Notes under the pieces: generated by a model | What the model saw: only the letters and a program-made list of their open reading frames with translations | Told to the model about the DNA's origin: nothing | Databases searched by the model: none | Translations under genes and position numbers: made by a program | NCBI GenBank assembly: GCA_000934665.2 | Contig: KZ538176.1 | Span: forward strand, 248,001 to 273,142 | Source of the DNA: Catajapyx aquilonaris | Taxonomy: Eukaryota | Reading direction: 5' to 3' | DNA length: 25,142 nt | Shown here: one piece after another, positions 3,231 to 24,600 of the stretch | How positions within the stretch are numbered: position 1 is the stretch's first letter | Layout of the letters: the number at the start of each line of letters is the position of its first letter

Positions 3231-6200
3231 TCAGGATTCCTTGGAAGGCTGCTGGCTGCCTGAATCGAGACCCAACGTCACACTAGTGATGTCCTTGACA
3301 ATCATTTCAGCGATCTGCCAGGCCATCTCCTCTTTGGTCTGAAGTTTAAATTTATTGTTAGAAACAAACCAACAAGAAGTCCATAAGAAGTGGGATGAAC
3401 TCTTACAAAGGTCCTGCATTACAGTTCACTCCACTGAAAAATCTCGTCAAATTGAACCAGATTTGTTTCATACTCGCACAAATTGTAACAAATATTTTAC
3501 ACTACATCCAAAGGTCCTTTCTCCAATGAAGTTTCATTCTTAAAAGTGAGTGCATGTAATTTTGGAGCCAGTATTCTAGTCAAGGACATTTCATATCTAT
3601 TTATTCACTTACTAATTTATTAATACTTGTCAAGGAATGCCACTTCTGAAGGATTTTTTTGTCTCTAGAGCTCATTTTTTTTTTTTTCAAAATTAATTTT
3701 ACTATTGAGACCAAGGTCCTTGGATGCCTGGGAAGCATCCGCACATGCTTCTCAGATTTGGAGTGAATTCATTCATTTCTGATTAACACGCTATGTATCC
3801 TGACTTTGGAGTCACCATGTATTAGGCATCTGGCAAGATAGTGTAATTGAAATTACTATACCCTGCAATATTTGTTATTAACATGTTATGCTGGAGAAAT
3901 ACACTACATTTTCATATTTAAAATCATTACTCACTGATTCATAACCTTTGCAAAAGCAATCCCTATGTGATTTATAAACCTGCACCACTAACCTTGCTTT
4001 CCTCTAAGTTGACTAACCTCTTCACAGCTTTGGACAAACGGGATTCTACAGAGACAGAAATAAAAATTAAAAATAACAAATGTCATCGCATTTCCGTTCA
4101 GAATAAAAGTAGGGTCGAGCACTTACCTCCTTTTCTATCTGGCTCTGGCTCAATCTCAGTTTCAAATTTACCCAGATCATTTATTCTTCCTATACTCAAC
4201 TTGCTGCAAACAAATATTGAGGCTATTTACTTCAAGGTACCTCAGTTAATATGATGCAGATATGCACAGGTCATAAGACTTAACTTACAATTCGGTCAAA
4301 ACAATAACAGCAATAAATGTTGATTCCTGACCTCATATGCCTCCTCCTCCAGAGCGAATCAGGATCATACAATTGTCTTGAGTCGATGGTCATTGAACGG
4401 TTGTCTACATTCTTGACCAGTCGAGAAGCTCCCCCTCCTGCTACACCAGCTGTTGCTCCCACACCAATGCCTCCCCCATCCATGGCCAAGAGTGTGTTCT
4501 GTACAGAAATGCTCTGCTCACTACTGCAAGTGCTGTCTGAACCTGTTTGGAAGTGAGACCACTGAAGTTAAATTATGATGCAGTGTTACACTTCTTATAA
4601 AACCCAAAAATCACAATCATGTAACAATCATAAACAAGTACTTTAGTGGGGGCTTAATGTCGGCCTATTTCTGTCGCTAGGCTCAACACCGACGCCAGGG
4701 GGTGGTCCTCCTCCTGGAAATTTGGCCACTCTGGGGATCTTTAACGTGCACTCGCGCAATGTCACAAGCACACGGGACCGACGCCTTACTTCCCCTCCGA
4801 AGGAAGGCGCACTCTCACTTTTCTACCACCCGGAGAAAAGTCACCGACCTCGGCCGGGTTCGAACCCACAACCTTGGGACCAGAGGCGAGCGCGCTAACC
4901 ACTAGTCCACCAAGGCTGGCATGAACAAGTACTGCAGCTCCGTTTTGAAAAAATGTCTGGCTAAGGACAATGGGGGTCATGAGTACTGAATAACCTTACA
5001 TATTGACATTATTGAGACAATTACATTATTGTTCCACTACAAAAATTACTGTAATATGTACTACTGGCAAAGTAATATTGCGGACACTCTGCTAAAAGAA
5101 AAGTACGTGAAAGTGTCCAGAATAATACGGTGCTGATAGTAAATTGCATATTAGTACACCTTGAAATATTAATTTCTTTACAATATTTTAAGCGCCTGCT
5201 ATGATGCAAAAATCTGGTATGAAAGGCTTTTATTAATCATAGCTTTGAAATGCTTAGCTTATCATCTACTATTTATAGTAAGAGATGTAAGTGCAATGAC
5301 CTGATCTCTTCTTCCTTCCCATGGGTCCCGGACTACTCTGCACTGTGTTCATAAGCTCTGAAAGGTAGTTGAGGTAGAGCTGTGACTCTAAAAATGGGGG
5401 CAGAAAGGTCTTCTCTAACACAGAGAAGACTGTCCGAAGTGGAAGGTCCAAACAGCCTGGAAGCGGTCCCCCTTCTCTGCAGATTCTGTGCTCTACTTCC
5501 AGCCGAACCTTATCACCAAATCCCAGGGGGCTTGATGCTTGCATTGAAAAATACCTATTGCAACGGTTCAAAAGTAGATGCCGTATCACCTGTTATGTTA
5601 TCTAATCTAGTGTAAATATGCTTTTCCTTACCTGTCGTAAAGGACCATGGCATCATTCTGTGCCTCCGTGCCATCATATACCCCCTTCTTGGCTAAATAG
5701 TGCTGGCGGAAGTTGTCAGCAGCAAGCCAGAACTCAACCAGACTGCTCTGACCTTCCTGTTCCATGAACTGAAAGGACAGGGACTACATTAATACAATGA
5801 ATCCTGTCTGCATCAGACCCTGAAGACAACAAAGGCTTGCTCAATTACAGATTACAAGTTTGGCATTGGCAAAAAAATTTTAAATGAATTTCTGATGTAT
5901 GTAATGAACTGAGTGTGTAATCAGTATGGAGCATTTTCAAAGATTATATCAATTGTGCTTTAGGGAAGTTTCGCTGCATTATCACACGAGACTTTTGCAG
6001 GAAGGACCCACCTCCATAAAGTAAAACAGAGCCGCTTCGTTATACACCACATCAGTGAGGAAGACATGTCCACTGGTCAGCACATCAATCTGATGCTTAC
6101 AGTGGAATTCACTGCGTAGAAAGTAGGGGAAATATCTGAAATGATCGTTGCATATCTCTCATTAACAAAATGAAATGCATGAAATTCCTTTCTCCTAAAA

Positions 6201-9200: not shown

Positions 9201-10355
9201 GATGAAGTAGCCGAGAGCACCTTTGTCATGTAAAACCTCCTGCAGTGTCTTGGACAGGCGGGAGCACTGCGTCCAGGTTGGTGTATAAGCCTCAGGTGAT
9301 AGCACCTTGTCCTCTGTAGCGATGGAAACACACATGAGTTTTTGAAACACACAATTAAGTGTTGTCACACTTACCCAGTTTGTCAATTTCCTGCTGCAGC
9401 AAGTGGTAAACTTTAGTTGGCCGGTGTCCAGGAGGTGTGGCCCAATCTGGCTGGTCCATGGAATCGTCTGGAATGCTGCCATTTTGGATTTGTCGCCTGG
9501 GAGACTTGGGAGATCCAGACCGGCTTGATTGGGAATCTTCAGATTTCTTTTTCCCTGCCACAAAGATACAGGTTAACTCCCGGATCAAAAAAAGGACTGA
9601 TATAAAATAGTGCATATCACAGATCCTGAATAGAGCATAAACCTATCCATCACAGGGTATATCTGTATGTCATACAAAACACTGACCTGCTCATTATCTT
9701 TACGGAATTTAATTTGGAATGGCCTGATTCCACTATATAAGCAGGTTAGTTGTAATTTCACTTCTGTGTTCAATTTATTGTATGCCAATATTGGCAATCA
9801 CTTACTCATATTCAGGGATACAGTGGGGGCTTTCTATCATTAGATCGCAGTAGTTGTTCTGGTGCTGCCGAAACCATTTCAACCAATGGCAATGAAGGTT
9901 TCAATAAATAGCCACGGTCATGGCCAAATGGCCCTTGCGATCTTGAACTAGGCAGCCCATAACATAGTAAAATTATTATCAATGGTCTGAAGGTCAAGAC
10001 ATTTAAAAGTCCACTTATCTACCCCTCCATTGACTGACAGCACTTCCAGTCAGCATCCATTGACACCCCAAGTCCCCTCGAGCATCAAGGGCAGCCCAGT
10101 AAACACGCCTGGCCCATATTTTCAACCATGATCAATGAACCATATCAGTGCTGTCTACTCCCCCTCTCCCGACTAATTAGGCCGATAACTTATCCCGATG
10201 GGGCCCAGTCATGCGTCCCTCCCCACCTGGATGCAACACCCCTACACAAAAAACAGCGCAACTAGGTCACGTAAGGTCAAGGCACCTGATGAAGCAGGTA
10301 ACACACAAAAAACGATCAAAAATTCACCAATTCCTAGTTTCCAAAACTGCGGCAT
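3231..10355 (-). CDS. AKAP10: A-kinase anchor protein 10 (D-AKAP2 / pkaap orthologue), two RGS domains plus C-terminal PKA-R binding helix, 537 aa
   Basis: Exons (minus strand) 10355-10328, 9554-9375, 9313-8872, 6135-6012, 5768-5632, 5554-5301, 4542-4332, 4203-4127, 4045-3993, 3338-3231. All introns are GT-AG, phases are consistent, total 1614 nt. Motifs: MPQFWK start; SRLSKTLQEVLHDKGALGYFIQFM..IRFWLEAESF (RGS1); FLRSEFHCKHQIDVLTSG..ALFYFMEFMEQE..FWLAADNF..AQNDAMVLYDRYFSMQA..LGFGDKVRLEVE..ICREGGPLP (RGS2); DPDSLWRR; GRINDLGKFETEIEPEPD; EEMAWQIAEMIVKDI (PKA anchoring helix). Confidence 0.95.
4643..4920 (-). mobile_element. tRNA-derived SINE (~280 bp) in AKAP10 intron 6
   Basis: Minus-strand head GCCAGCCTTGGTGGACTAGTGGTTAGCGCG (A box) ... 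GGTTCGAACCC (B box). The central CCTTCCTTCGGAGGGGAAGTAAGGCGTCGGTCCC..GCACGTTAAAGATCCC resembles Deu/Nin-type SINE domains. Flanking direct repeats ATAAACAAGTACT (4630-4642) and ATGAACAAGTACT (4921-4933) form a 13-bp TSD with one mismatch. Confidence 0.88.
7094..7496. mobile_element. Non-autonomous Tc1/mariner-pogo-type MITE with long inverted arms (AKAP10 intron 3)
   Basis: Perfect terminal inverted repeat CAGTACCCTGCATTAATGGCCATGCACAGACA at 7094, with its reverse complement ending at 7496. Imperfect symmetry continues ~120 bp inward. Flanked by TA on the left and CA on the right (decayed TA TSD). Confidence 0.85.
9827..9958. mobile_element. Possible degraded short MITE in AKAP10 intron 1
   Basis: GGGCTTTCTATCATTAGATCGC (9827-9848) versus the reverse complement of GCGATCTTGAACTAGGCAGCCC (9937-9958): about 15/22 match. 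No clear TSD. Confidence 0.3.
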
Positions 10356-10939
10356 CTTCCTTCCGTGGACCCCTTCAGCGGTCCCATCACGGGCTGCCCG
10401 CGGCTTCCGTCCGGCCAACAGTGCGGGAGGCTTCGGTGGAGGCGAGGCGCATCGTCCGTCCGTCCGTCTGGAGGAACCAGCCTTGTTTACTCACACCCGC
10501 ACTACTGCGACCTCCAACCCTCTGGGCGCAGACATCTTGGATTCACGGGAGGGGATGCTGCTCCAGCTAATGGGAGCGCACGTCCACGCTCATTGGCTTC
10601 TAGCCCAATGGGCAGCCAATGGGGTGGAAGTCCAGCTCAGCGGCTGGGCAGTGTAAATCCGGGCACTCGCGGACGGAAAGGTCACATACGGTATGACCTA
10701 CACCAAAGATCAACACGGGTCAACACCACAGAAATGACTGCACGAATCCCCAACATTTGCGTGTGTCCCTGTACGCACTATTAATATCACGCAAATTGAT
10801 GTAAAATGTGCGCTTCAGTTCGGCAGGCAGTTTGGCAACGTGGCCCGCGTTGCATTGTGGTCCTCCCCCCACCTCCCACCCACCCACCCACCCGGCCGTG
10901 ACGTCACGAATAGACGCCGAGGAGAAGAAGCGAGAGAAG
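10356..10939. promoter_or_regulatory. Bidirectional promoter / 5' UTRs shared by AKAP10 and the FET gene
   Basis: The two ATGs are 585 bp apart, head to head, in GC/CpG-rich DNA. CCAAT/ATTGG motifs at ~10592-10620, GGTCACA (Ohler motif-1-like) at ~10680, TCAGTT initiator at 10815-10820, and palindrome CGTGACGTCACG (CRE) at 10897-10908. Confidence 0.7.
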
Positions 10940-13900
10940 ATGGGCGACAGTCGTAAGTAGTTTTGCTCTGATTTTTATGTTTTGGGGCCATGGGGCCAAG
11001 GGCGGAGGCGGGGGCTAGGGGCGGGATGTGGGGCGTAGGCTGGGGCGAAAGAAGCAAGTGGGGTTTGGAGCCGGGGGCGGGCAGCAGGGGCCGGGACAGG
11101 AAGCTAGGCCTGGGGGGATCCGGTGGCGTGCTCTTTGTTCGACGACGCCCCGATTTTTGTGGACGGAATGCCGCGTTGAGGGAGAGGATTCGGGTCGAGA
11201 TATGGGGAGATGTCGGGATGTGGGCCTCGTTTGGTGACACTAGAAGTATGCATTGGGCAAGGAAAAGGCGCCAACTCATGCATAATGAATGGGGAATAAA
11301 AAGACAAGGGTTCGACTAGGGCTGGTGGAAGCTTCGCCAGTTCTCGGTTAATATGGGCAATTTTTGTATCTGCACCGTCTTGTGCAGCAGCCAGAAATAT
11401 GTTGTGGCTTTGCCAATCTGCATCTCATGGGTTGGAGGCCGTGATGGGTGGGTATTGCTCTACCCAGCACATCAGCATACTCAAATCATGGCAAAGGCTC
11501 ATTGAAGTAAGCCAAGGCCACTTCCACACAACGACCTTTCTGGCATATTTTAGGTTTTGGACTGTGGGATGCACTAGTCAATTTCCTAGTAAAATGAGGG
11601 GATATTTAGTAATACAGGTAGTCCCCAGTTTACAAACGACCTGACTTTACGGCAATCAATGCTTACGAACCCGGAAGGATAATTTGTAATATATTATCCT
11701 GCCGTTTTCAATCATTTCTGCATACATTTGAGCGACACCTAGTTCGACATAAATGCGTGTAATTGGAAAAGTACTTACGCTCATATAAACAAACACACAC
11801 AGCATAAGCGGTCGCTGCAGCAGCATCTTTGCGCTGTGTATATGAGCTGTTTCTTGGATATCCAAGTAGCGTACAAATCCGACTTTTGGACACTTTCAGG
11901 AACTTGACAGCGTTCATAGACCGGGTACTACCTGGGAGTGGATTCACGAAAGAGGGCAACTTTAGAGGGTGTACGTGATTTTCACTTTGTAACTCTATGC
12001 TGCCCTTACACCTTCGTATCTCTGGAGGTGTAAAGTGATTCACAAAGCGGCGCAGCACTCTGTGTAAGGAGGGCACAAGTGTAAAAGTCGCGTGTCATGT
12101 AACGGGGCTCGCTATTGGCTGCGTTGTTAGATGGCCACCCGAACCCAGCCATAACCCACCCTAGCGCCAACCTAGCAGAAGGCAAAGATACGAAGGGAAG
12201 GTGGGAAAGAGATGTGATCTTTGGTGGAATACCTGAAAATTGTGGGCACTCGGCTGAAATTAAAAAGGGAGACCAACTAGTTTATTGACAGATGGGGCTA
12301 GACTCTCAAGGCTGTTGCCATGTCGGATTGTCTGGGGGCAACCCGGACTTGCGGACACGTTCCCCGATTCCCATTCCTTACCTGAGCTAACCAAATAAGC
12401 TAAGGGCAGTCAGGCAAAGGTGGCCGAAACTGTTGCTTTGTCTGTGCCGAGGGGTCAATCACTCTGATGTTGAGCGTACAACGGACTTGCAAAAAGCCGG
12501 GCTTGGTGCTTACCGTACAACGGACTTGACGAGTGATTTACCCCTCGTTGTTGTGTCAGATAGATTTTACGCAGTGAGTAAGCCTGCCCATGGCCGGCAT
12601 GTAACGGGGGGTCCACATGCGATCCCGGATTATTGGGGGGGAAAGCTGGGTGAGGTGTACCTTCGACTTCTAGCTCTGGTCAGAATAGGGGCCAGACGTT
12701 GGCCATGTCACTTCTCCCACTTACACCTCCTCCCAAGCAGGCGTAGAGATCCGCCTGGTTAAGTAGTTGCGCTGCTTTGTGAGTCCAACTCGGAGCGCCA
12801 CCCCTCTGGCAGCGAAAAAGTGAACTGAACTTGCAACGGTGTATGTATTTGAGCTCTTTTGTGAATCCACCCCCTGTACTGTGTCAATGAGACATTTATC
12901 TGGGAAATTCTGTAACAAGGAGCAACTCCCATTAGAGATGTTTCACTGCGTTACCAGGCGAGATGACTTGTGATTGTGCTTGAAAATATCTGAGGATTGT
13001 CATAATGAAGAATTAAATTCCAGTGTTGAACCAAAAGAAGCCTGGTCCCTCTTTTGATTTTTCAAGGGGACCAGACCTCCCATGCCAACCCTCCATGTGC
13101 AACAATGATTTTGCACAGTCCAAATCTTTTAAAAACTGAATAGGATTGCAAGCCACAACCTCCACCAGCATGTGAGTCAGAGACTCTTATCTGTGCATAC
13201 AAGCACGTAACCCAGAATTCTCGGTTTTGCGAATCATCCAGATGTAAAAAGCAAGTGTTGGCACTAAGTGAGATTTTACGCCATCTGGATTGAAAGGAAT
13301 TTACCGCTTAACTCCTAGTGACGAATGGGGTGTTTGATGATGTGGCGAATTACCTTATGAGAATCTAGAGTGCTGATTTGCATTGTTGGAATTGAAAGGT
13401 GGGGTGGGGACAATGGCAAAAAATCAATGGTGCAGGGTGAATATGAAGTGAATAGTGATAGCAAATGGAGGAATGTAGACTATGGAAAAAAAAAACTGCA
13501 CAATTGCATTCCTGGGATGCTTCACATTCTGTAACTATTCAATTGACAAGTCACTCCATGACCAGTGATGAATGGATTTAGTGCCTTGAAAGAATTTGTC
13601 AAATTGAATAGGAAATTTCTATTGAATGACACATAGAACAAGGGTTGAAGTCAATGGGAATAAATTTTTGCGTCATTGGTTGCTTCCTGGATGTTGTAAA
13701 TCATGCAGGTCACAAATTTGCAAATGTGATATGAACACATGCTGCGAGCCGCCTATGATTTAAGACTTAATCAATATATTTGTGTTTTCCAATTAGAGTA
13801 CAACAGTTACGGTACCAGCGCTGGTGGTTACGGGAGTTACTCTGGCTACTCCCAGCCTGCCCCAGCAAGCGGAAATAACAACTCTGGAAGCTACAGCTCT

Positions 13901-16900
13901 GGTAACAGCGGCGGCTATGACCAGAGCAGCAGCGGTTACAGCCAACCTAGCTCCTGGGGAGGTCAGCAGAGTTACAGCAACTACAGCTCGACCACTGAGC
14001 CGCCATCAGGGGGTTATGGAGGGCAAAGCCAGTCCAGCTATGGGAGCTCACAGAGTGAGTTGCTTTATGGTCTGCCAGTACTTACTGCACCAACTTTTGA
14101 GGGTTGAATAGGTCAGGCTTCAATATCGTGCATAATTGTGGCACCCTTATAGCTCATTATTGAGGTCATCCCGTAGGCATGAGGTTTTTGTTTGAGACAG
14201 AATTTTAGGTATGGAATGTAGGCAGGATTATATATATGCAGCTGTTGAGAAAATTGAACAAGTTGGCCTTTGAAGGGACACTGAACTCCTTTGAAAGTTG
14301 GGCTATAAAATACAAGCAATAGGTCTTGTTTACAAGGGTGCAATTCATTTTTGACAAACCAAAATGCCAAACCCAGGCCAGGATGTCAAAACCAGCCAGA
14401 AAGCCACTGACTGGTAGATAGTGGTGCTGCCATGCATGAACTGATGGGAAAGAGAGAAGTGGTTCATTTGGAATTATTGACTCTCCTGTGTTGTTCCTGG
14501 GAGATCAGTTGCGAGTTACTTACCCTGCCCTTCTGGACATGCTTTTCCAGCTAATAACATGTCTGGTTCTGGACATTACTTTTGCATGCTGATCTTCCCT
14601 GTATTGGATGAAATTGTGTCGCTGGCGATGCAGATTTCTTGACCTCTCCTGTTGACCTTACCTTAGTTCTGAGAAAAACTAATTGCACCCTCAGAGTAAG
14701 ACTTGTTTGCTGATTTTTAGAGCTCAATTTGCAATTAGAGCGTAGTGCCCTTTCACACCAGCAATTTTGATGGCAGTTCAGTTTGCATGAATTTACACCC
14801 TTGAAAGTTGGCCAGAAGTTGGATAGGTGGGAACCCCCATAAGGAGAATTGCCATTCTCCATGGGACTACTTGTTTTTGCAGGAAGGGAGGATAGGCAGG
14901 GGGAGAAAAAAGTACACTTTGGGACATGAGGGTTGCGACTGGCAGACACGAGTTTCATTTGGAAGCCAGATTAACGTGGGCACTCCTGTGCTTACAGGCA
15001 CGAGCTACCCATCTTACGACCAGTCTAGCTATGGCAGCAACCAGAACCAAGGCTACCAGCAGAGCTACCAGAGTCCTTCCTCATACGACCAGGGGAACAA
15101 CACACAGTATTCTGGCTACGGGCAGCAGTCCAACTATAGCCAACCGAACAGCTACGGGGGGCAGCAGAGTAGCTATGGGGGGCAGAGCTACGGAGGTACG
15201 GATGGTGCGCACAAAACAATTTTTACATCTTATTTTGTTTGTAGCGTAACTCCTGGAGCAAAATTGGTGACACGACCTGTTTGCTTGTGGCAAAATTCCA
15301 TTGCGATAAATGAAAAATTGCCATAGAGGGAGTAGGTTTCACCGTGTATTTTGTTCCCATGGTAATTGAATCTTAGCGATTGCTTTTGAGGGTGGCTTGG
15401 CTGTGTCCTCAAAAAAATCCCCTTTCTCTTGCGATTGCAGGTCCTCCCAGTAGCGGGTACGGCGGTGGTGTAGGCAGGGGCGGATACAAGTGAGTTGCTG
15501 TTTTCTATTTTAATAGCCAAGTGGCTGATAGTACTGTTGATAGTTTCTGATAGTATACTACACTCTAAGAGAGTGAGTCAAAACGCAGTGTGCCACTTTT
15601 GGAAAGAGAACGAACGTCGTAGCTGGTTCAGTGAATAGAGTCTTGCTTGGATACAAGTCCTAAGTAATCTTAAGTTTCTGTTATCCCAATTTTTTTGGTT
15701 GACAAATAGCGAGCCTAGTAGATTTTGGTATTGTTCTGTATTAGGCTTGGTAAACTAATTTCAAGTAGCACCGAGTATGGAATTTGCTTTATTCAATTAG
15801 CTTGGTCTTGAAAAATTCTACTCAATGACATGATCTGCACATAAATTTTAACTCTACTGTACTTGTCATCTTTTTTCTCTTTAAGTCTTTCCAACAGGTT
15901 TCAAGTTGTGTGCAAACACATTCCATGTAATTATTTTTCTCCATTATCACGACATATGACGAGTACACTGTGCATAGAACGGGGAAGATTCAGAAGGGAT
16001 GATGGTTACTGAATGGTGTGGTGGTCATGTCTCTGAATTTTGAGAACTGGAATTGTGACCAAAATGAGCAGATAAAAGTGCACAGGTGGTGGTTTCATCT
16101 GGGTATTAACATTTTACACAGAGGAAAACAGATATCCAACCATATTATCTATATTCATTAGGTACGGAGTGTCCCTTGGCGGGAATGTCAAGGTTAAGGG
16201 AGATTTTACGAAGGTTGAATTTTGTTTTACTACATATTTTGGTAACGTTTTAGAAAGTAAGGGTCGAGTGGTTCGAGATGAATTATTTTGGTGCACAGCT
16301 CATAAAGAGTTAGAATAACTTGCAATATAGAAGAGTGGTTTATCAACTGGAGTGTGTAGACATTCTGGGGTTATTTTCCAAAAATATGTGAGTGGTAAAC
16401 ATGGTGTGTTGTGTCTGAAATTTTCAAAACAAAACCCAGGAACCAATCAAAAAGGGAAGGTTTGGTGTGTGTGGTGGTGGAAACTGTAGGCTAAAAAGCA
16501 AAAAAAGAAAGAAAATGGAAAATGAGGAGGGTTCTACTGCACAGTCATCACCAGGTCTAGACAACATTTTTCTGACTCTGACTAATCCTTAGCTCCCATG
16601 CACCATTATTTTGACTGTTTGACTGCTTTGACGTTACAGACTGTAATATACATCGTTGTTCTCCTTTCCCTTGCCCATTGACTGGACGAAAGTGTGAGAT
16701 GTAAGAGGAGTGTGATCTAGGTTTCCTAGCCAAGAAAAGGGACTCCACCCACACATGCACCCAGAAGGGAGTGAGGATGAGCAAATGGGTGAGCATGAGT
16801 AAACCGGATAAGTCGGGGTTGAAGGTGCTGGAAGGATTGTTAATACCGCTTGTAAAATTGGGTTCTCTGAATTGTCCGTTGACCTTAATATTAATTGCAA

Positions 16901-19900
16901 CTAATTATTATGTAAAATGTAGAGCCATTAAGGCAGCACTTTCGCTAAATAGTTCTTCAAATCTCGTAGGAGGGAACATGAGTTTTGTCAGACAACTGCA
17001 CCCGACTTATTTGTGTTGTTGGAGTGAATGAGAGTGTGAATGTAAACATATCCTGTGGTGGTGAGTCAAGGCCCACCCCCTCCTCCCAAGTAGAAGAACT
17101 GTCAAGACCTGAAGTCGCCCTGGGGAAGAGGGACAGGGAGAGAGAGAGGGACAGAGAGAGTTACTCATTACCTGTTTTATGCTTCCGTTCTAGCAGTGGC
17201 GGCAAGGGTGGTTTTGGCAAAGGTAACAGCACCCGTGGTTTCGCACCCGGTGCTTTTCAATTCTTTTCGGTTTTTACGGGCTGGTCACAAACCATCTTTT
17301 CTCTTGGTCGTCATCTCCTTTCCCCCTCCAATCACATACCCTTTTCCATTCAGTCTTAGCCACTGCTTGCGTAGTTGACAGTGACAACCAACCTTGGCAA
17401 GTAGAATTAATATTGAATTACAGAAAAATGAAAGTAGCAGCTTAATTTTGAACTGATCTTCCATAAATAATTGTTAGCAGGTCAATAATTCTAGCTATTT
17501 CTTTTTTGTGAAGGAAATTTTGTATCTGACATTGTCACTGTCAGCTTTGGCTGTGGGATAAAAGGGTCTGACCGTAAAATGGGGATATTGGATCAGTGGT
17601 TGCTTTGTCCGACCCACAAAATGGGGCAGCCAAGTACATGTTCACGTAAGCAGAGGCATTCCTCTATGTCACGTCTGTCCCCTAATCCTTGACTTGTCAA
17701 TCAGGGCTGCTGTCCTTCATTGTTGTCCTGCAGGATGGGAATGTTTTTTAGTTGGCACTCTTCTGTTACTTGTGGGGCACTTCAAATAGACACGTTCCCA
17801 GGACAATGTTGGGTTACTTCTTGTGCCAAGTGCATGCATTTTAAATCGTCTCTCAGACTTGCTGTATGTCTCCTGTTATGTTTTTTTTTGGAACAACCTT
17901 TTTTTTACGAAGAGGAGGAGGTAAGTGGACAGCAGCCTTGACTTGGCTTTGTACCTGGGGAAAGCCCACAGCTTGTCAGTGATCGTTTTAAGTCATTGCC
18001 GTATGCTTAAGAGTGTGTACGCCACCATAAGCCCATTTTTTTGAACATACAGAAAGTTAGGGGTATGTTTCTCTTATCGATACAAACTTAAGGTAAAACT
18101 GCCAAGTGGATGGGTTGTGTGCCATGTGTTTTCAACAACACACACTACGGAAAAGGAAAACAACAAACGTAACAAACCCCATGGTCATCCAACTCTGCTG
18201 TCAGTTCCGCTGTGCTCACTTGCAAATTTGACGTAACTGTAAATGATGCGGAGCTGCAGCAGAATACAAAACTGTGAAGTATCTTGGGTTGTACATTAAA
18301 AAATGTGATGGTAATAAAGGTTGTTAGGTGTGAAGACCAGGTCTGGTGGGTGATGCCGAAGGTTGGAAGGTGAATTAACGAGCAATGCTACGTTTGCAGG
18401 GGAGTGATGGAAGCGTCTTTAAGTAAACCAGGTGGATGTGATTCAATGGCTTCCATAACCAGGAGTAGCAGAGTGGCCGAAGGAAGAGATTGCAGCATGA
18501 TTGTTGTATTGTTTGGAAAAGTGATGTACTCCTGTCTAGCATATAACACCCTGCAATGTAAATGACCTGGGGTTTTGGTACAGAGGTTTTTTGCGGCACA
18601 TCCTTTCTGTTACTTTTCTGAACTGGTGACTCAGTGGGTACATAGCTGGTCCATGTTCTGAGTATGGTCTTTTGGTGGATTCCATTCGCCGGGCAGAGGT
18701 TTACATGTGTACACGTTTTCTCACGGTGTATTCATTGCATGCTATTGATCAGTTTGATGACAAAAAGAAATCAGTATTAGGGTTTTTTGGTCTGTGGATT
18801 GGGTGGGGAAGTGTTGAATGAGTAGGGGTCAAAGAAAACGAGTCTTTAGTTGTGTTTGTTAAAGCAGCAATGGTCATGCTATCTCCCAACTTGTTAAACA
18901 GTAGCTTGAAGTGATTGATTGATTGTCCAAAGGAGTTAACCTGATCATTGTTGAGGGTTGTGATCATGTGTATAGCAGGTGCAGTGCCTTAAATTTTGTT
19001 TCTGTAATGTAGGAGGCTATGGAGGCCCCGGGGGTGACGAGTACACTGTCATGGAGGACACCATTTTTGTCACTGGCCTGCCACAGACTGTCAACGAGAC
19101 TGACTTGGGATCATTCTTCGGATCCATTGGGATCATAAAGGCAAGCCCCCTCAGCCTGTATACTCCCTTGTGTGAATGCTCACCGCCAGTTTATGAACTG
19201 TCTTACTTCCCCTTGGTTTTTCACTTGGCACTGCTTTCGCTTTCATTACCAAGTTTTGTAGGAGGTATTCTTATGGTGGGTTCGGGGCCATTTACTCGGA
19301 TTAATTAGAACACCATTGGTGTGGATGACACCCCCTTGCAGAACGACAAGAAGACCGGCAAGCCTCGTATCTGGATCTACAAGGATAAGACCACCGGGAA
19401 GCCAAAGGGGGAGGCCACTGTGACTTACGACGATCCTAATGCCGCCAAGTCTGCCATCTCCTGGTTCCATGGTGGGCTCAGTTTCTATCTAGCAGCAGTT
19501 AGCTAATGACTCTTGAGTAATGTATTTTCGTTGTTGTTGAGCAGAGAAGGAGTTCCAGGGATGCATTATAAAAGTGCAGATGGCAACACAGAAGAACAAC
19601 TTTATGGGTGGCAGAGGTGGAATGAGGGGTGGCATGGGAAGAGGAGCACCCCGTGGTGGCGGCGGCGGCGGAGGGGGTGGTGGTGGGGGCGGGGGCGGAA
19701 GAGGTGGCGGCGGCGGTGGTGGATTTGGTCGAGATGGTGATTGGAAGTGCCCCAATGAGACCTGCGGCAACACTAATTTCTCCTGGCGCACCGCCTGCAA
19801 TCGTTGTGGCCTCGCTCGCCCAGAGGGTGAAGGCGGCGGCGGAGGAGGAGGAGGAATGGGGGGAGACTCTGATTTTGGTGAGTTGAAGGCTGGTACAGCA

Positions 19901-20314
19901 GCAGAATCAGAACTTAGGTATTGACAACTGGCAAGAATATCATCAATGACATGCTAGTTAGTCGATATCTAAGTTCCATTATGAGGCTTGTTAGTTTTAT
20001 TTCACAACAATTAGATGACATTGCAGGTGGTGGGATGAGAGGCCGCGGAGGTCGAGGTGGAATGGGAGGCGACCGTGGAGGCATGCGTGGAAGGGGTGGT
20101 GGAGATCGTGGGCGTGGAGGATTCCGTGGGCGTGGAGGTCCAATGGGAGGTGGAGACCGCGGCGGTGGTCGTGGCAGAGGAGGACCCATGAGGGCTGGAG
20201 GGTATGCATCTCACTGGGATTGTGTTTACCTGTTTTTGAAGATGTGTACTTATTAATATTTTGTGCCCATTGCTTTGCAGAGACCGCGGGAGGGACAGGC
20301 CGAAGCCCTATTAG
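10940..20314 (+). CDS. caz: FET-family RNA-binding protein (cabeza / FUS / EWSR1 / TAF15-like), 448 aa
   Basis: Exons 10940-10952, 13797-14054, 14998-15195, 15441-15489, 17194-17222, 19013-19140, 19342-19471, 19545-19877, 20027-20201, 20281-20314; 1347 nt, in frame. Domains in order: QGSY-rich prion-like N-terminus; RRM ([54 protein letters not shown]); RGG; RanBP2 zinc finger ([24 protein letters not shown]); RGG; PY-NLS end ([10 protein letters not shown]). Confidence 0.93.
11615..11934. mobile_element. Tigger/pogo-like MITE (FET intron 1)
   Basis: Left end TA|CAGGTAGTCCCCAGTTTACAAAC. Right end GTTCATAGACCGGGTACTACCTG is an imperfect reverse complement. Its right-hand TA TSD appears displaced to 12877-12878 by a second insertion. 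Confidence 0.75.
11935..12873. mobile_element. PIF/Harbinger-like non-autonomous element with CTG target-site duplication
   Basis: TIRs GGAGTGGATTCACGAAAGAG (11935-11954) and CTCTTTTGTGAATCCACCCC (12854-12873), 18/20 match. Flanked by CTG at 11932-11934 and 12874-12876. Subterminal inverted motif TCACAAAGCGGCGCA (~12040) pairs with TGCGCTGCTTTGTGA (~12768). No transposase ORF recognised; superfamily assignment is an inference from the 3-bp TSD and G-rich TIR. Confidence 0.7.
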
Positions 20315-20609
20315 TGGGCGACTTCATATGTCCACCTGGTGGGAGGGGGCCCACACTTAGGATTTATATCTTCTGTTCTGGTACAGATACCCCCCAACTC
20401 ACTTCCCATTTGTGTACAAAAGTGGCTCCGGCCATTTGCCTTGCAATTTGTTAGTTTTTTTTTCCCCCTCCCGCCCCCCCATCTTCTCTCATGGCATGAG
20501 TGAGTTGAGTATTGAAACGTGCAGAGGTTTTTGTGAGGACCAAGTTTTTTTTAATTTTTTTTCTTTGTGTAGCTCCTGCCTTTTATGATGTATAAGGTAG
20601 TGTTTGGTA

Positions 20610-20615
20610 AATAAA
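20610..20615 (+). terminator. Candidate poly(A) signal of the FET gene
   Basis: AATAAA ~295 nt after the stop, with TGTA motifs upstream and T/GT-rich sequence downstream. Confidence 0.55.
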
Positions 20616-21099
20616 TGTGACATGAATTCTGAGATTTTCTTTAGTGCATGCATTTGTATTTCAGATGTAAGCGACCAACGACACGGGATGTTGCAGGGTG
20701 CAATAAGTGTAGGCTACTGTAATGGATTCAGAAGTTTCTTAATGCCACTTTAACTAAGTACAATGAACAGGATTTATTTTTAAAGTGAATCCACAGCAAT
20801 TTGTAAAAATGGGCTTATCCCGAGTTTCATAATAATTAGTGTTGCATTTTGTGTATTAAATGTATACATTGGACATGCTGAGCAGATGCTGAGTATTTCC
20901 CACCGTGATGGGAGGCAGGCATGTGAAAGCCAGCTGTCATGGCCTATGGGAAATACAGTCGGAGCTGAGGCCGTTCAACAACCTCCGTAAGAAATGATGT
21001 ATAGACGCCATGGGTCAATCGCCCCGTGTGAACTCGATTGACCTTTCCTCATCCCGAATATTTTGATTCAAACAATCCGGACGATATTTACTACAATTA

Positions 21100-21654
21100 T
21101 TCGCAAATAAATTCCAACCGGATCCGTCCGCGAGATACAGTACCCGGACACTTGGCAACACCGCACTGCGACCTTCACCCTAACCACGCTTTTAACCGCA
21201 TTTATCCCGGATCATCCAACCACCGCTGGCCCAGCAACACCCCCGAATCCGGATCCAGATTCCAGTCCCAATCTCCGTATTCTCCTCCCGTGCTGTGCGG
21301 TGCGAGGTGCGGTGCAAGCCCCTCCTGCCGCCTGAACCCCGGGTGGTGGGCGCCCCTGTGAGCGGGCCTTCCCAGAAGGCGTCGCGTCGGGCAACATTGG
21401 CCGCACGTGGTAGCCCTACGCCGCTGCTCTCGCCTCTCGCCTCTCTCTCTCCTCTCTCCCCTCTCGTTCCCCCCCTGCACATGCCGAGATTATCCGGACG
21501 CGATCCCCGCCGCATCATCATCGGTGTACATGCTGCCAGACGCCAACGGACCACGCACGGGACTAGCTGCACTACCAGCAGGAAGAGGAGGCATCACCTC
21601 TTGTACGTCTGTGGCACACCCGCCGGCCATCGGATAAGGAGGCTGCTCGATTGG
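21100..21654 (+). promoter_or_regulatory. Probable promoter and first (likely 5'-UTR) exon of a downstream unidentified gene
   Basis: CpG-rich island, (CT)n tract at ~21440-21465 and donor-like TGG|GTGAGC at 21655. G-run-rich sequence follows, the same pattern seen after the FET first exon. No recognisable protein. Confidence 0.35.
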
Positions 21655-24600
21655 GTGAGCCATGCACACCGGATGGACACGCTTTTCTTTCAGTGAGGGA
21701 GTTGGGAAGAGCCCAGGGGCGGACCACGGGCCATATGCCGGCATTTTGGAGGCGGGGGGTGGGCATGGAATTGGGGGCAGGAAGTGGGTGGGTGGGTGGG
21801 AAGCCGGTAGAGAGAAGCGGGGTGGGAAGAAATGGCGTTGGATTTTTGGTGCAAGGGGGAAAAGAAACCAGAAAAAAAAAAATGTCCAGGTTGAATGATC
21901 CTGCAGTGTCATCATTGGAGGCTGGTTACATGGTCATGCCTTCATGTGTCTGCTCTGGATTTTTATGGGCTGAGCAGGAAATGGTACCGCTGCACACCAA
22001 ATAGGAGGATAGGGAGGGATGGCAGAGAGAGGGTTCATGGGAGGGGAAAATGCAGTCTAGTTGAGTGACCACTAATTTGGCCTGACTTTGTTGCATAATC
22101 TATGCTTATATCACCAGGGAGCTATTTTATGGAGGGGGTATGGGCCTTATCTTATGATGGATCGCGGGTTGTGTGGCAATAATATGTACGTGTTAGATGT
22201 TCAAGTGCATCTAAGTGTGTGTACAAACCTAGTGTCAGCACTCAGCATGGCATGTTTCATTGAAGCAGGTGTAATAGTAATGTGGCCTTGTAAAACTCAT
22301 ATGAAAGCAACCTTATAAAACTGAAATGTAGGCTATCATGATCAACAAGTCCCCCTTTTTTTCTGTGGGTGAAGTGATACTTCAGAAAATTAATTGGTCA
22401 GTCAGCTAGTGAAGGGTGATAGGCCAGGAAATAATGATGCTGAGTCAGCTGAGGAAGGGCAGGCAAATCTGTGCTTTCCGACTGAGCAAAGGTATTCTAT
22501 TCCTGACGCTGTTAGGAATGTTGTTACAATGTACTTTACAAATTGCAGGAAACTGCATGGCAAAAATGGGACTAAATTTACAATGAGTTTCCATCGTCTG
22601 ATACAGTTAGCCTTGTATAACTGCAGTCCAAAACATTGTGTCACGGGTCTAAGCACATTGTCTGGGCATATTGAACTGATGCCATCAGCTCTGCAAGAGT
22701 CTGCAAACATTGCAAGTGATTCAGACCAACCCACCCACTCTCCTACCACAGGCAGCCAGGAGATCTTATGCAAAACATCCCTGTGTAGCTCCCCTTCCAG
22801 GCAACACACCACAAAACAGAAAGCCAGGAATAGATTAGGTATACTCCCTTGCATGGAGCCCATTGATACTGGCAAGCTTCCCAGCACTTTGGGTTGTGTC
22901 CCAGGGATTGGAAATGCCCCAAAAAAGACTTCTGAAGCAAGCATTGATTAGTATTAATGAGTCGCTCATGGTGCATGGACCCTGGATACAATTAGCTCCG
23001 GATAGCCTGTTGATATTTGGCAGTTGGTGAGTTCCATGTGTGTGTGGAAAATCTTAGGAATCTGAGGACCATATTGTGCAATGTGGCAAGTCAGATCCAC
23101 ATGGGCACCTAACAGCCGCCACATGTAAATGCACATGTAAACATGGGATGGATTACACCTGTATTTGCAGTTGTTCTGCCAGCCTGCAAGTGTCTGACCA
23201 GCAGTCAGCAAATCTGGCCAAGCTTGTCAGTCATAAAACCTAGTTATAATTCAAGCCAGAGTGGGAGTCCGTGGCATGTGTAGGACATAACTTGACTATC
23301 CACATGTGCACCGCTCTGTGCGGATTTCCTGCAACAAGTAGGATATTGATTGATTGCTATATGTCAACGGAGCCACTTGCATATTCATTTTCCCCAGCAG
23401 TGCTTACGCGCACTTGTGGTACAGCCTGCAAGCATTAGCTTAGAATGGAAAAAAATGCAAAAGTGGTTGATAAGAGGCATGTGGCATTCGCAGCTGTAAA
23501 ATTGGCGTCACGTGGCACAAATGTGACCCTCACACTGGTCGGAAAAAGGGACTGGGTCGCCCTCCTTTCCCCCTTTTGCAATTACATATACCCCCACACG
23601 TAGCCATATTTTCCACAACGGCCATGCATGTACCCGGAGTTGGCCCAGGAGGGGTTAACGGCCCCCTTCAAAAACACGTTTCTGATATCTGGTTTTTGTT
23701 GGAAGGAGAAGGGGAGGGGGAGTAGTCCGGTCCAGGCTTCGATCCCCGGCCACGTTGTCCCCATGGTTCGACCACGTGAGCCACGCTCCAGGGTCTGGCC
23801 TCTTTCTGGTTGGATTGGGTCCAGAAATGAATGGCAAGGATGACAGCCAGCACCCAAGGTTTTCTTCTGCCCTTGCTAACACCACCCAGCCCTTAGGGGG
23901 TTTATTGGTCAAAAATTGGTGCCCTTGTGGTGGTGAAAGGAGAGTACCTAGGGTGTGGTCTCGGCACACTTGATACTAGTTCTTTCAGAGGATGATCATA
24001 CGCACTTCCGTATGTGACAAAAATGTGCAATGAGTGATGTGGTGATTGGGGGTCATCCTGAGGAGGTGCCGTAATGACAACCACGCCCAACATGGCTTTA
24101 GATGCAATCACAGAGCCGGTTTCTTCGAGTACAAAACTGGTCTGGAGCATGGGTGCACAGAAGACAGTTTTCACAATCGGTTTCGCGGCCTTGTTGCCAC
24201 AGTCTACTTGGCAGCAGGTACCACGAATTTCGATTCGGTTCGTGGTGAGGGATCCACGCGTCGAAATTTTGCGGCAGATGCAAGTTTTTTTGTTTTTTGT
24301 TTTTTTTTGAAAAATAAAAATAAAAGCACTTTCCACTCTCTAAACTAATGAGGGCTTGGAGGTCATAAGCAATGGCCCTAGGGACTGGACCAGAGCTTGG
24401 AGGAAGAAAAAAAAAAGTGAAATCTGCACAATTGTCGCGGTAGTAAACTTTTGAGTTAACCACGCGTATCAATCCGGACTGTGTTGCCTTTTTTTTTCAC
24501 TGCTTCACTGGCCTGCAACCGAAGCTTGTTGCAGGTTGTTGGAAGGAAGGAAAAGGACCACAATCTGAATAATTTGGAAGGAAACTGCTTTTTCTAGAGA

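Follow-up and report, generated by a model that had tools for sequence, protein, structure and literature searches.

A frame-shifting micro-exon between two retained introns in a FET-family gene of Catajapyx aquilonaris, a candidate counterpart of FUS exon 7

Self-directed unproductive splicing or intron detention has been listed for PTB, hnRNP L, TDP-43, and other proteins (Zhou 2013, PMC3814325). The same paper describes how FUS represses its own exon 7, so that the skipped RNA is frameshifted, meets a stop codon in exon 8, and becomes a target of nonsense-mediated decay (NMD). Exon 7 together with introns 6 and 7 forms a region of about 3 kilobases (kb) conserved in 38 vertebrates, and GGUG, GUGGU, and GGU are given as FUS motifs, with GU/GGU enriched in introns 6 and 7 (Zhou 2013, PMC3814325). 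In mouse and human tissue, FUS was reported to autoregulate through retention of introns 6 and 7, with exon 7 skipping undetectable, and the intron-retaining RNA was nuclear and insensitive to NMD (Humphrey 2020, PMC7337901). In Caenorhabditis elegans, FUST-1 promotes the skipping of a 38-nucleotide (nt) exon in its own pre-mRNA, exon 5, located upstream of the RRM. Translation of the skipped mRNA begins at a downstream AUG in the +1 frame and gives isoform b, whose RRM, zinc finger, and nuclear localization signal are intact (Cao 2021, bioRxiv 10.1101/2021.03.22.436400). Our statements on these three papers refer to the parts of each that were consulted. Here we compare with these systems a gene of Catajapyx aquilonaris that carries a 29-nt micro-exon between two long introns, within a stretch of 25,142 nt (hereafter the window) from contig KZ538176.1 of assembly GCA_000934665.2, positions 248,001 to 273,142 of the forward strand.

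By its sequence, the gene is a homologue of the FET family (FUS/EWS/TAF15/cabeza). Exon borders were read from the sequence and then compared with the contigs of run X1, the only public run that contains this stretch (library type unrecorded), which were placed on window positions 10000-22000. The result is a ten-exon gene at 10940-20314 on the plus strand, with a spliced open reading frame (ORF) of 451 amino acids (aa). Its translation runs from an S/Y/G/Q-rich N-terminal half through an RRM, a Gly/Arg stretch, a RanBP2-type zinc finger, and RGG repeats to an end in ..RPKPY. Pfam RRM_1 scored 24.4 bits on the exon piece 19342-19470 (cut-off 20.7) and 20.2 bits, slightly below that cut-off, on a 42-aa piece from 19015-19140, while Zn_ribbon_RanBP scored 33.1 bits on the exon piece 19547-19876 (cut-off 27). 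No Pfam model covers the S/Y/G/Q-rich, RGG, and C-terminal PY parts, which were read directly from the translation.

Protein searches pointed to the same family. With a 43-aa query from 19342-19470, 37 of 37 candidates had E<=0.001, the best being 85% identical over 43 aa. A further search that started from an amphioxus match retained 152 of 8000 scored candidates, many of them named by their source as cabeza or cabeza-like, FUS, or TAF15/TAF2N. By local BLASTP, the nearest named proteins were from a centipede and a bivalve, with about 63-65% identity over the pre-RRM and RRM region. The assignment thus joins an RRM followed by a RanBP2-type finger, an S/Y/G/Q-rich start, RGG repeats, a PY signal, and named FET relatives.

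A reading made from the sequence alone, before any transcript comparison (the sequence-only reading), had proposed a 29-nt exon entered in phase 2 and left in phase 1, flanked by introns of about 1.7 and 1.8 kb in a gene whose downstream introns measure about 70-200 nt. Sequence, splice joints, and translation agree with this description. The flanking introns measure 1704 and 1790 nt, against 201, 73, 149, and 79 nt for the downstream introns, three of which are confirmed by joints and the 149-nt one by its GT-AG ends and reading frame. Length alone does not set the flanking introns apart, since intron 1, at 2844 nt, exceeds both. The micro-exon directly precedes the exon in which the RRM starts, and its length is not a multiple of three; it encodes the peptide [10 protein letters not shown], and its nucleotides include GGTGGT (17207). 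Its acceptor is a tandem NAGNAG site (..tag/cag, 17190-17197; here and below a slash marks a junction), and a second joint, 15489>17197, produces a 26-nt exon that keeps the frame. The two forms, which are both present among the spliced X1 contigs, encode proteins of 451 and 450 aa that differ by one Ser.

In silico, skipping the micro-exon or retaining either flanking intron leads to an early stop upstream of the RRM. Skipping gives ..KRLWRPRG and then TGA at 19035-19037, 103 nt before the 19140 junction, just as the sequence-only reading had worked out, and four further junctions lie 3' of the 19140 junction in the skipped form. Retention of the upstream long intron leads to a stop at 15491-15493, and retention of the downstream one to a stop at 17357-17359. 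The predicted skipped RNA would carry a truncated ORF of 183 aa followed by an ORF of 253 aa from the ATG at 19051 (MEDTIFV), which spans the RRM, zinc finger, RGG, and PY signal and excludes the low-complexity domain. An isoform like the worm's isoform b was considered for this gene and rejected. The +1 frame is shut in exon 4 by TAG 15471-15473 (a single Val codon followed by G), where the alternative-frame ORF ends in ..GTAVV, and so a worm-like second isoform cannot arise here.

X1 contigs carry neither strand nor amounts and drop rare forms, and the absence of a form cannot be shown from them. All ten listed joints coincide with predicted exon borders (nine GT-AG and one GC-AG), and for this reason the run behaves as RNA-derived; 19 of the 21 placed contigs agree with the window at 99% or more. 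Besides the spliced contigs, we found unspliced ones in both long introns, covering 15516-16195 and 16173-17223 in the upstream intron and 17194-17640 and 18636-19040 in the downstream one. Every bin from 15614 to 18821 has depth across the two introns, at 4-13 over 3.5 kb and gapless by bin. Retention of 15490-17193 and of 17223-19012, which the sequence-only reading had named as one of two forms to look for, is therefore represented by unspliced contigs over both introns. In the same gene, contigs join the exons on either side of introns 1 and 2, and depth drops to zero in bins of these introns (11203-12405, 12807-13608, and 14411-14811). Since introns 1 and 2 are joined and fall to zero depth whereas the long introns are covered throughout, it is the introns flanking the micro-exon that remain in the RNA. 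Selective retention of these two introns is thus observed, in one run and from strandless contigs.

The long introns also differ from other parts of the window in motif content. On the sense strand, GGT reaches 22.6/kb in the two long introns, whereas the figure is 13.7/kb for the gene's other introns (p=0.002) and 13.3/kb for the rest of the window (p=8e-5); its complement ACC is not enriched in the long introns. GTGGT occurs at 3.7/kb in the long introns, compared to 0.4/kb in the other introns and 1.0/kb in the rest of the window. The upstream long intron holds 11 GTGGT against 3.2 expected (z=4.5, reached by 0 of 300 shuffles), with GTGGTGG clusters at 16018, 16086, 16471, and 17055. GGT is enriched in the downstream long intron although GTGGT is not, and the enrichment lies mainly in the upstream intron. 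GGTG was not enriched in any intron.

As the sequence-only reading had remarked, there is no obvious transposable element in either long intron: searches returned no transposon domain, Rfam family, or explanatory repeat. None of 14 intronic ORFs of at least 60 aa reached a Pfam cut-off, and three weak sub-threshold matches (DUF3796, EII-GUT, and SMIM5_18_22) were set aside as chance. Rfam returned no matches over 10000-21500 at E up to 1. The only repeats in 15490-19012 are a purine-rich direct repeat (17127-17160) and a 17-nt palindrome, and no inverted repeat pairing the two long introns was found in that interval.

Near the 3' end of the upstream long intron, a purine-rich (GA/GGGA) tract is found at 17113-17160, about 30 nt 5' of the micro-exon acceptor, and GGTGAGT at 17058-17064, a consensus-like donor, sits in a GTGGTGG cluster. 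Both are possible splicing control elements.

We lean, with a little more belief than doubt, towards the reading that the 29/26-nt exon and its two long introns form an unproductive-splicing cassette of the FET gene that is subject to feedback by the gene's own protein and has its probable homologue in FUS exon 7 and introns 6 and 7. Most likely, retention of the two introns beside the micro-exon is at least one way in which the cassette acts. Productive splicing includes the micro-exon and yields the 451-aa protein. Some transcripts retain one of the two introns or both; ending at the stop at 15491 or 17357, these are unable to encode the RNA-binding half. The FET protein itself may bind the GGU/GUGGU-rich RNA in and around the micro-exon, and such binding would slow or block micro-exon splicing. 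With the response depending on dose in this way, a high FET level would divert transcripts to intron-retaining forms, and perhaps to exon-skipped forms ending at TGA 19035. The diverted forms may then be held in the nucleus or degraded, and the outcome would be negative feedback on an aggregation-prone protein.

Plainer origins of the intronic contigs were weighed against this cassette. The micro-exon might be constitutive: an exon of 29 nt is hard to define, its long neighbours would be spliced late, and the unspliced contigs would then be ordinary intermediates with no feedback involved. Such slow splicing would sit well with the inclusion forms that alone appear among the X1 contigs, with a micro-exon donor (AAG/gtaaca) off consensus at +5 and +6, and with the local RNA fold around the exon, which is unremarkable over 17100-17320 (z=+0.58; 135 of 200 shuffles fold at least as well). 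However, the still longer intron 1 is joined across and has zero-depth bins, the sense-strand enrichment of GGT and GTGGT is specific to the long introns, and the same arrangement is regulatory in vertebrates and nematodes. We consider slow constitutive splicing, the main rival, unlikely.

We judge it quite improbable that another transcript, an antisense or intronic non-coding RNA at about 15.5-19.0 kb, gives the cover in place of the FET pre-mRNA. A colinear antisense RNA would yield identical pieces in strandless contigs, and depth climbs towards 19040, reaching 13.3 in the contig at 18636-19040. Nevertheless, the cover ends at borders set by the exons 15441-15489 and 19013-19140, the long introns contain no joint, loose end, or cluster of starts or ends, and the Rfam and Pfam searches described above gave neither an RNA family nor an ORF with a protein family. 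Even less credible, in our view, is an artefact in which genomic DNA, bulk nascent RNA, or assembly chimeras make the intronic contigs. An unrecorded library type and a single run leave room for it, but introns 1 and 2 of the same gene are joined across and have zero-depth bins, and the close match of the placed contigs to the window and the gapless intronic depth also speak against it.

Several observations weigh against the cassette reading itself. The skipping arm draws no direct support from X1: the skip joint 15489>19013, the other form that the sequence-only reading had named, does not occur among the contigs, which are blind to rare forms and cannot show its absence. Contigs overrun three splice sites by 30, 29, and 28 letters, under the 31-letter bridging bar, and a fork in a k=31 graph produces such ends. 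X1 depth is not convertible to a retention fraction, and all transcript evidence comes from contigs of a single run of unrecorded library type. In the downstream long intron, neither GTGGT (2 against 4.6 expected) nor GGTG (11 against 12.9 expected) is enriched. GTGGTGG was noticed by eye before testing, and the motif enrichment is therefore supporting evidence only. Precedent and motifs are the two grounds on which we infer feedback by the FET protein. Finally, the micro-exon peptide is of low complexity, and vertebrate RGGFNKFG may align best at the border of exon 4 and the micro-exon (RGGYN/SGG).

With these points in mind, we compared the locus with vertebrate FUS. Both genes belong to the same family and place a short frame-shifting exon immediately before the exon in which the RRM starts, with skipping leading to a stop in the next exon. 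The sequence-only reading gave human FUS exon 7 as 35 nt with the same phases; that length, like 29 and 26, would leave a remainder of two when divided by three. In each case the exon lies between two introns, each about 1.5-1.8 kb long and in FUS adding up to about 3 kb, that are both partly retained and enriched in GGU-type motifs. The X1 contigs also resemble mouse tissue in that retention is seen and skipping is not, the route described by Humphrey 2020. In contrast to FUS, the exon here is 29 or 26 nt long with a tandem acceptor, and the peptide match is limited to a Gly-rich GGF.K.G motif. That motif is also present in FET proteins from chelicerates, from a centipede, and from a flatworm.

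The micro-exon is left within a Gly codon, and 14 residues separate this junction from DTIFV. Dog FUS has a comparable junction (..NKFG/GPRDQG) with 18 residues to NTIFV, and in predicted skip isoforms the join reads ..WG/PRDQG. The region is repetitive, and an alignment of the vertebrate motif to the border between exon 4 and the micro-exon is also possible, so exon-for-exon homology is likely but not proven. The sequence-only reading had proposed that the FUS switch exists here as such. A FET homologue, a micro-exon in use, a phase-1 Gly junction before the RRM, and retention of both introns uphold that proposal in part, while the skipped form on which it also relied is unseen in the X1 contigs.

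The nematode gene provides a second point of comparison. fust-1 is also an invertebrate FET gene, and its 38-nt exon upstream of the RRM has, like 29 and 26, a remainder of two when divided by three. Skipping in the worm yields isoform b, whereas here the +1 frame is shut, and the consulted parts of the worm paper report no retention of the flanking introns. The likeness to PTB, hnRNP L, and TDP-43 lies in the logic of negative feedback, in which a protein diverts its own pre-mRNA to a form without a protein product. Those genes mostly use poison exons or introns in the 3' untranslated region (UTR), in contrast to the essential coding micro-exon and two adjacent introns found here.

Many database isoforms of FET proteins start with an Ala/Val/Glu/Met-rich stretch and change to the normal sequence a little way before the RRM. 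With a first anchor, 73 of 153 proteins were scorable, 28 of them frame-switched in appearance; a better anchor made 102 scorable and left 51 unscored (44 too short upstream and 7 without the anchor). In the segment 75-135 residues upstream of the KGEATV motif, V/L/I/M/F made up 15% or more in 57 of these 102 proteins and 5% or less in 31, with 14 falling in between. Seven of the 57 were unconvincing by eye (P0007, P0012, P0044, P0045, P0131, P0134, and P0153), which leaves about 50 frame-switched predicted isoforms (among P0030-P0149). The set spans vertebrate FUS and TAF15, amphioxus, many insects, a springtail, Daphnia, ticks, a spider, gastropods, and two cnidarians.

In vertebrate FUS and TAF15, the switch point is exactly ..WG/PRDQG or ..WG/PRDYG. 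The composition of the switched N-termini is that expected of the +1 frame over a region coding for Gly, Tyr, Ser, and Gln, a frame that can hardly hold a stop because codons with T in second position are nearly absent from such regions. These models are either real transcripts without the frame-shifting piece or annotations that missed the micro-exon, and as predicted sequences they point to a frame-shifting element before the RRM across animals. A few models, those of Littorina and Aromia among them, switch frame upstream of the GGF motif, and the element therefore need not be the same exon everywhere.

The sequence-only reading had further argued that the switch is very old. The self-driven skipping of fust-1 exon 5 and the many frame-switched FET isoforms fit this argument. 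In the literature consulted, whose coverage is incomplete and takes in Zhou 2013 and Humphrey 2020 apart from their supplements, we found no statement that identifies the micro-exons of vertebrates, nematodes, and other invertebrates as a single ancient exon. A broader view, possible but in our judgement doubtful, is that the whole cassette, a frame-shifting pre-RRM micro-exon with two detained introns, is ancestral to animal FET genes and arose before the cnidarian-bilaterian split, with lineages toggling between an outcome of two isoforms and one of decay or detention. Skipping would then lead to a second protein whose N-terminus differs, as in C. elegans, or be shut by a single Val codon, as at TAG 15471-15473 here.

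Coordinates of the remaining features of the gene are collected in the table below. One contig supports an in-frame skip of exon 3 (69 codons; joint 14054>15441), which gives a 382-aa isoform with an unchanged stop and a shorter low-complexity domain. The sequence after the TAG was read as 3' UTR, with AATAAA at 20610-20615.

Table. Exons and selected introns of the Catajapyx aquilonaris FET gene, in window positions
Feature	Position	Strand	Basis and remarks
Exon 1, coding end	10940..10952	+	ATG 10940; joint 10952>13797, GT..AG; frame from translation
Intron 1, 2844 nt	between 10952 and 13797	+	contig joint
Exon 2, S/Y/G/Q-rich low-complexity domain	13797..14054	+	joints 10952>13797 and 14054>14998; translation
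Exon 3, 207 nt, S/Y/G/Q-rich	14998..15204	+	joints 14054>14998 and 15204>15441
Exon 4, 49 nt, ends in phase 2	15441..15489	+	contig joints; donor GTGAGT
Upstream long intron, 1704 nt	15490..17193	+	joint 15489>17194 (after cut shift) and unspliced contigs
Micro-exon, 29 nt, phase 2 in, phase 1 out	17194..17222	+	joints 15489>17194 and 17222>19013; ...ttctag before, gtaaca after
Downstream long intron, 1790 nt	17223..19012	+	joint 17222>19013 (after cut shift) and unspliced contigs
Exon 6, RRM start; skip-frame TGA 19035-19037, in-frame ATG 19051	19013..19140	+	joints; acceptor ...aatgtag
GC-AG intron, 201 nt, in RRM coding region	19141..19341	+	joint 19138>19340, 2 ambiguous letters, equal to 19140>19342
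Exon 7, RRM middle	19342..19471	+	contig joints; RRM_1 match
Exon 8, RRM end, Gly/Arg-rich stretch, RanBP2 zinc finger	19545..19877	+	joint 19471>19545; donor by sequence and frame only
Exon 9, RGG repeats	20027..20201	+	joint 20201>20281; acceptor by sequence and frame
Last coding exon, ..RPKPY and TAG 20312-20314	20281..20314	+	translation; contig extends to 20463

Elsewhere in the window, exons of an ocular-albinism-type (GPR143-like) receptor lie in 307-1800 on the plus strand (Pfam Ocular_alb, E 4.6e-12), and RGS-domain exons lie in 5272-5783 on the minus strand, at 23.3 bits (E 9.2e-5) and 19.7 bits, both slightly below the cut-off of 23.9. Several X1 contigs match only 12511-12545 of intron 1 and continue into unrelated sequence on both sides; this segment is probably part of a dispersed repeat. 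Past the 3' end of the FET gene, X1 contigs at 21228-22000 with a depth of 7-12 and a loose end at 21654 suggest another transcript, and the ORFs tested in that interval gave no Pfam family. Depth is zero at 20827-21227 and no contig joins across; this interval was not used as evidence.

FUS dosage control through exon 7 and introns 6 and 7 is tied to amyotrophic lateral sclerosis and is a target for antisense therapy. Taken alone, this window provides one well-documented instance and no new principle, as the mechanism is known in vertebrates and a related one in C. elegans. If the same control operates in a distant invertebrate, self-limitation of aggregation-prone FET proteins would be several hundred million years old. 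The features shared across phyla, namely exon size class, phase, GGU-rich flanks, and double intron retention, would then mark the parts that matter, and simple animals would be usable for dissecting the switch.

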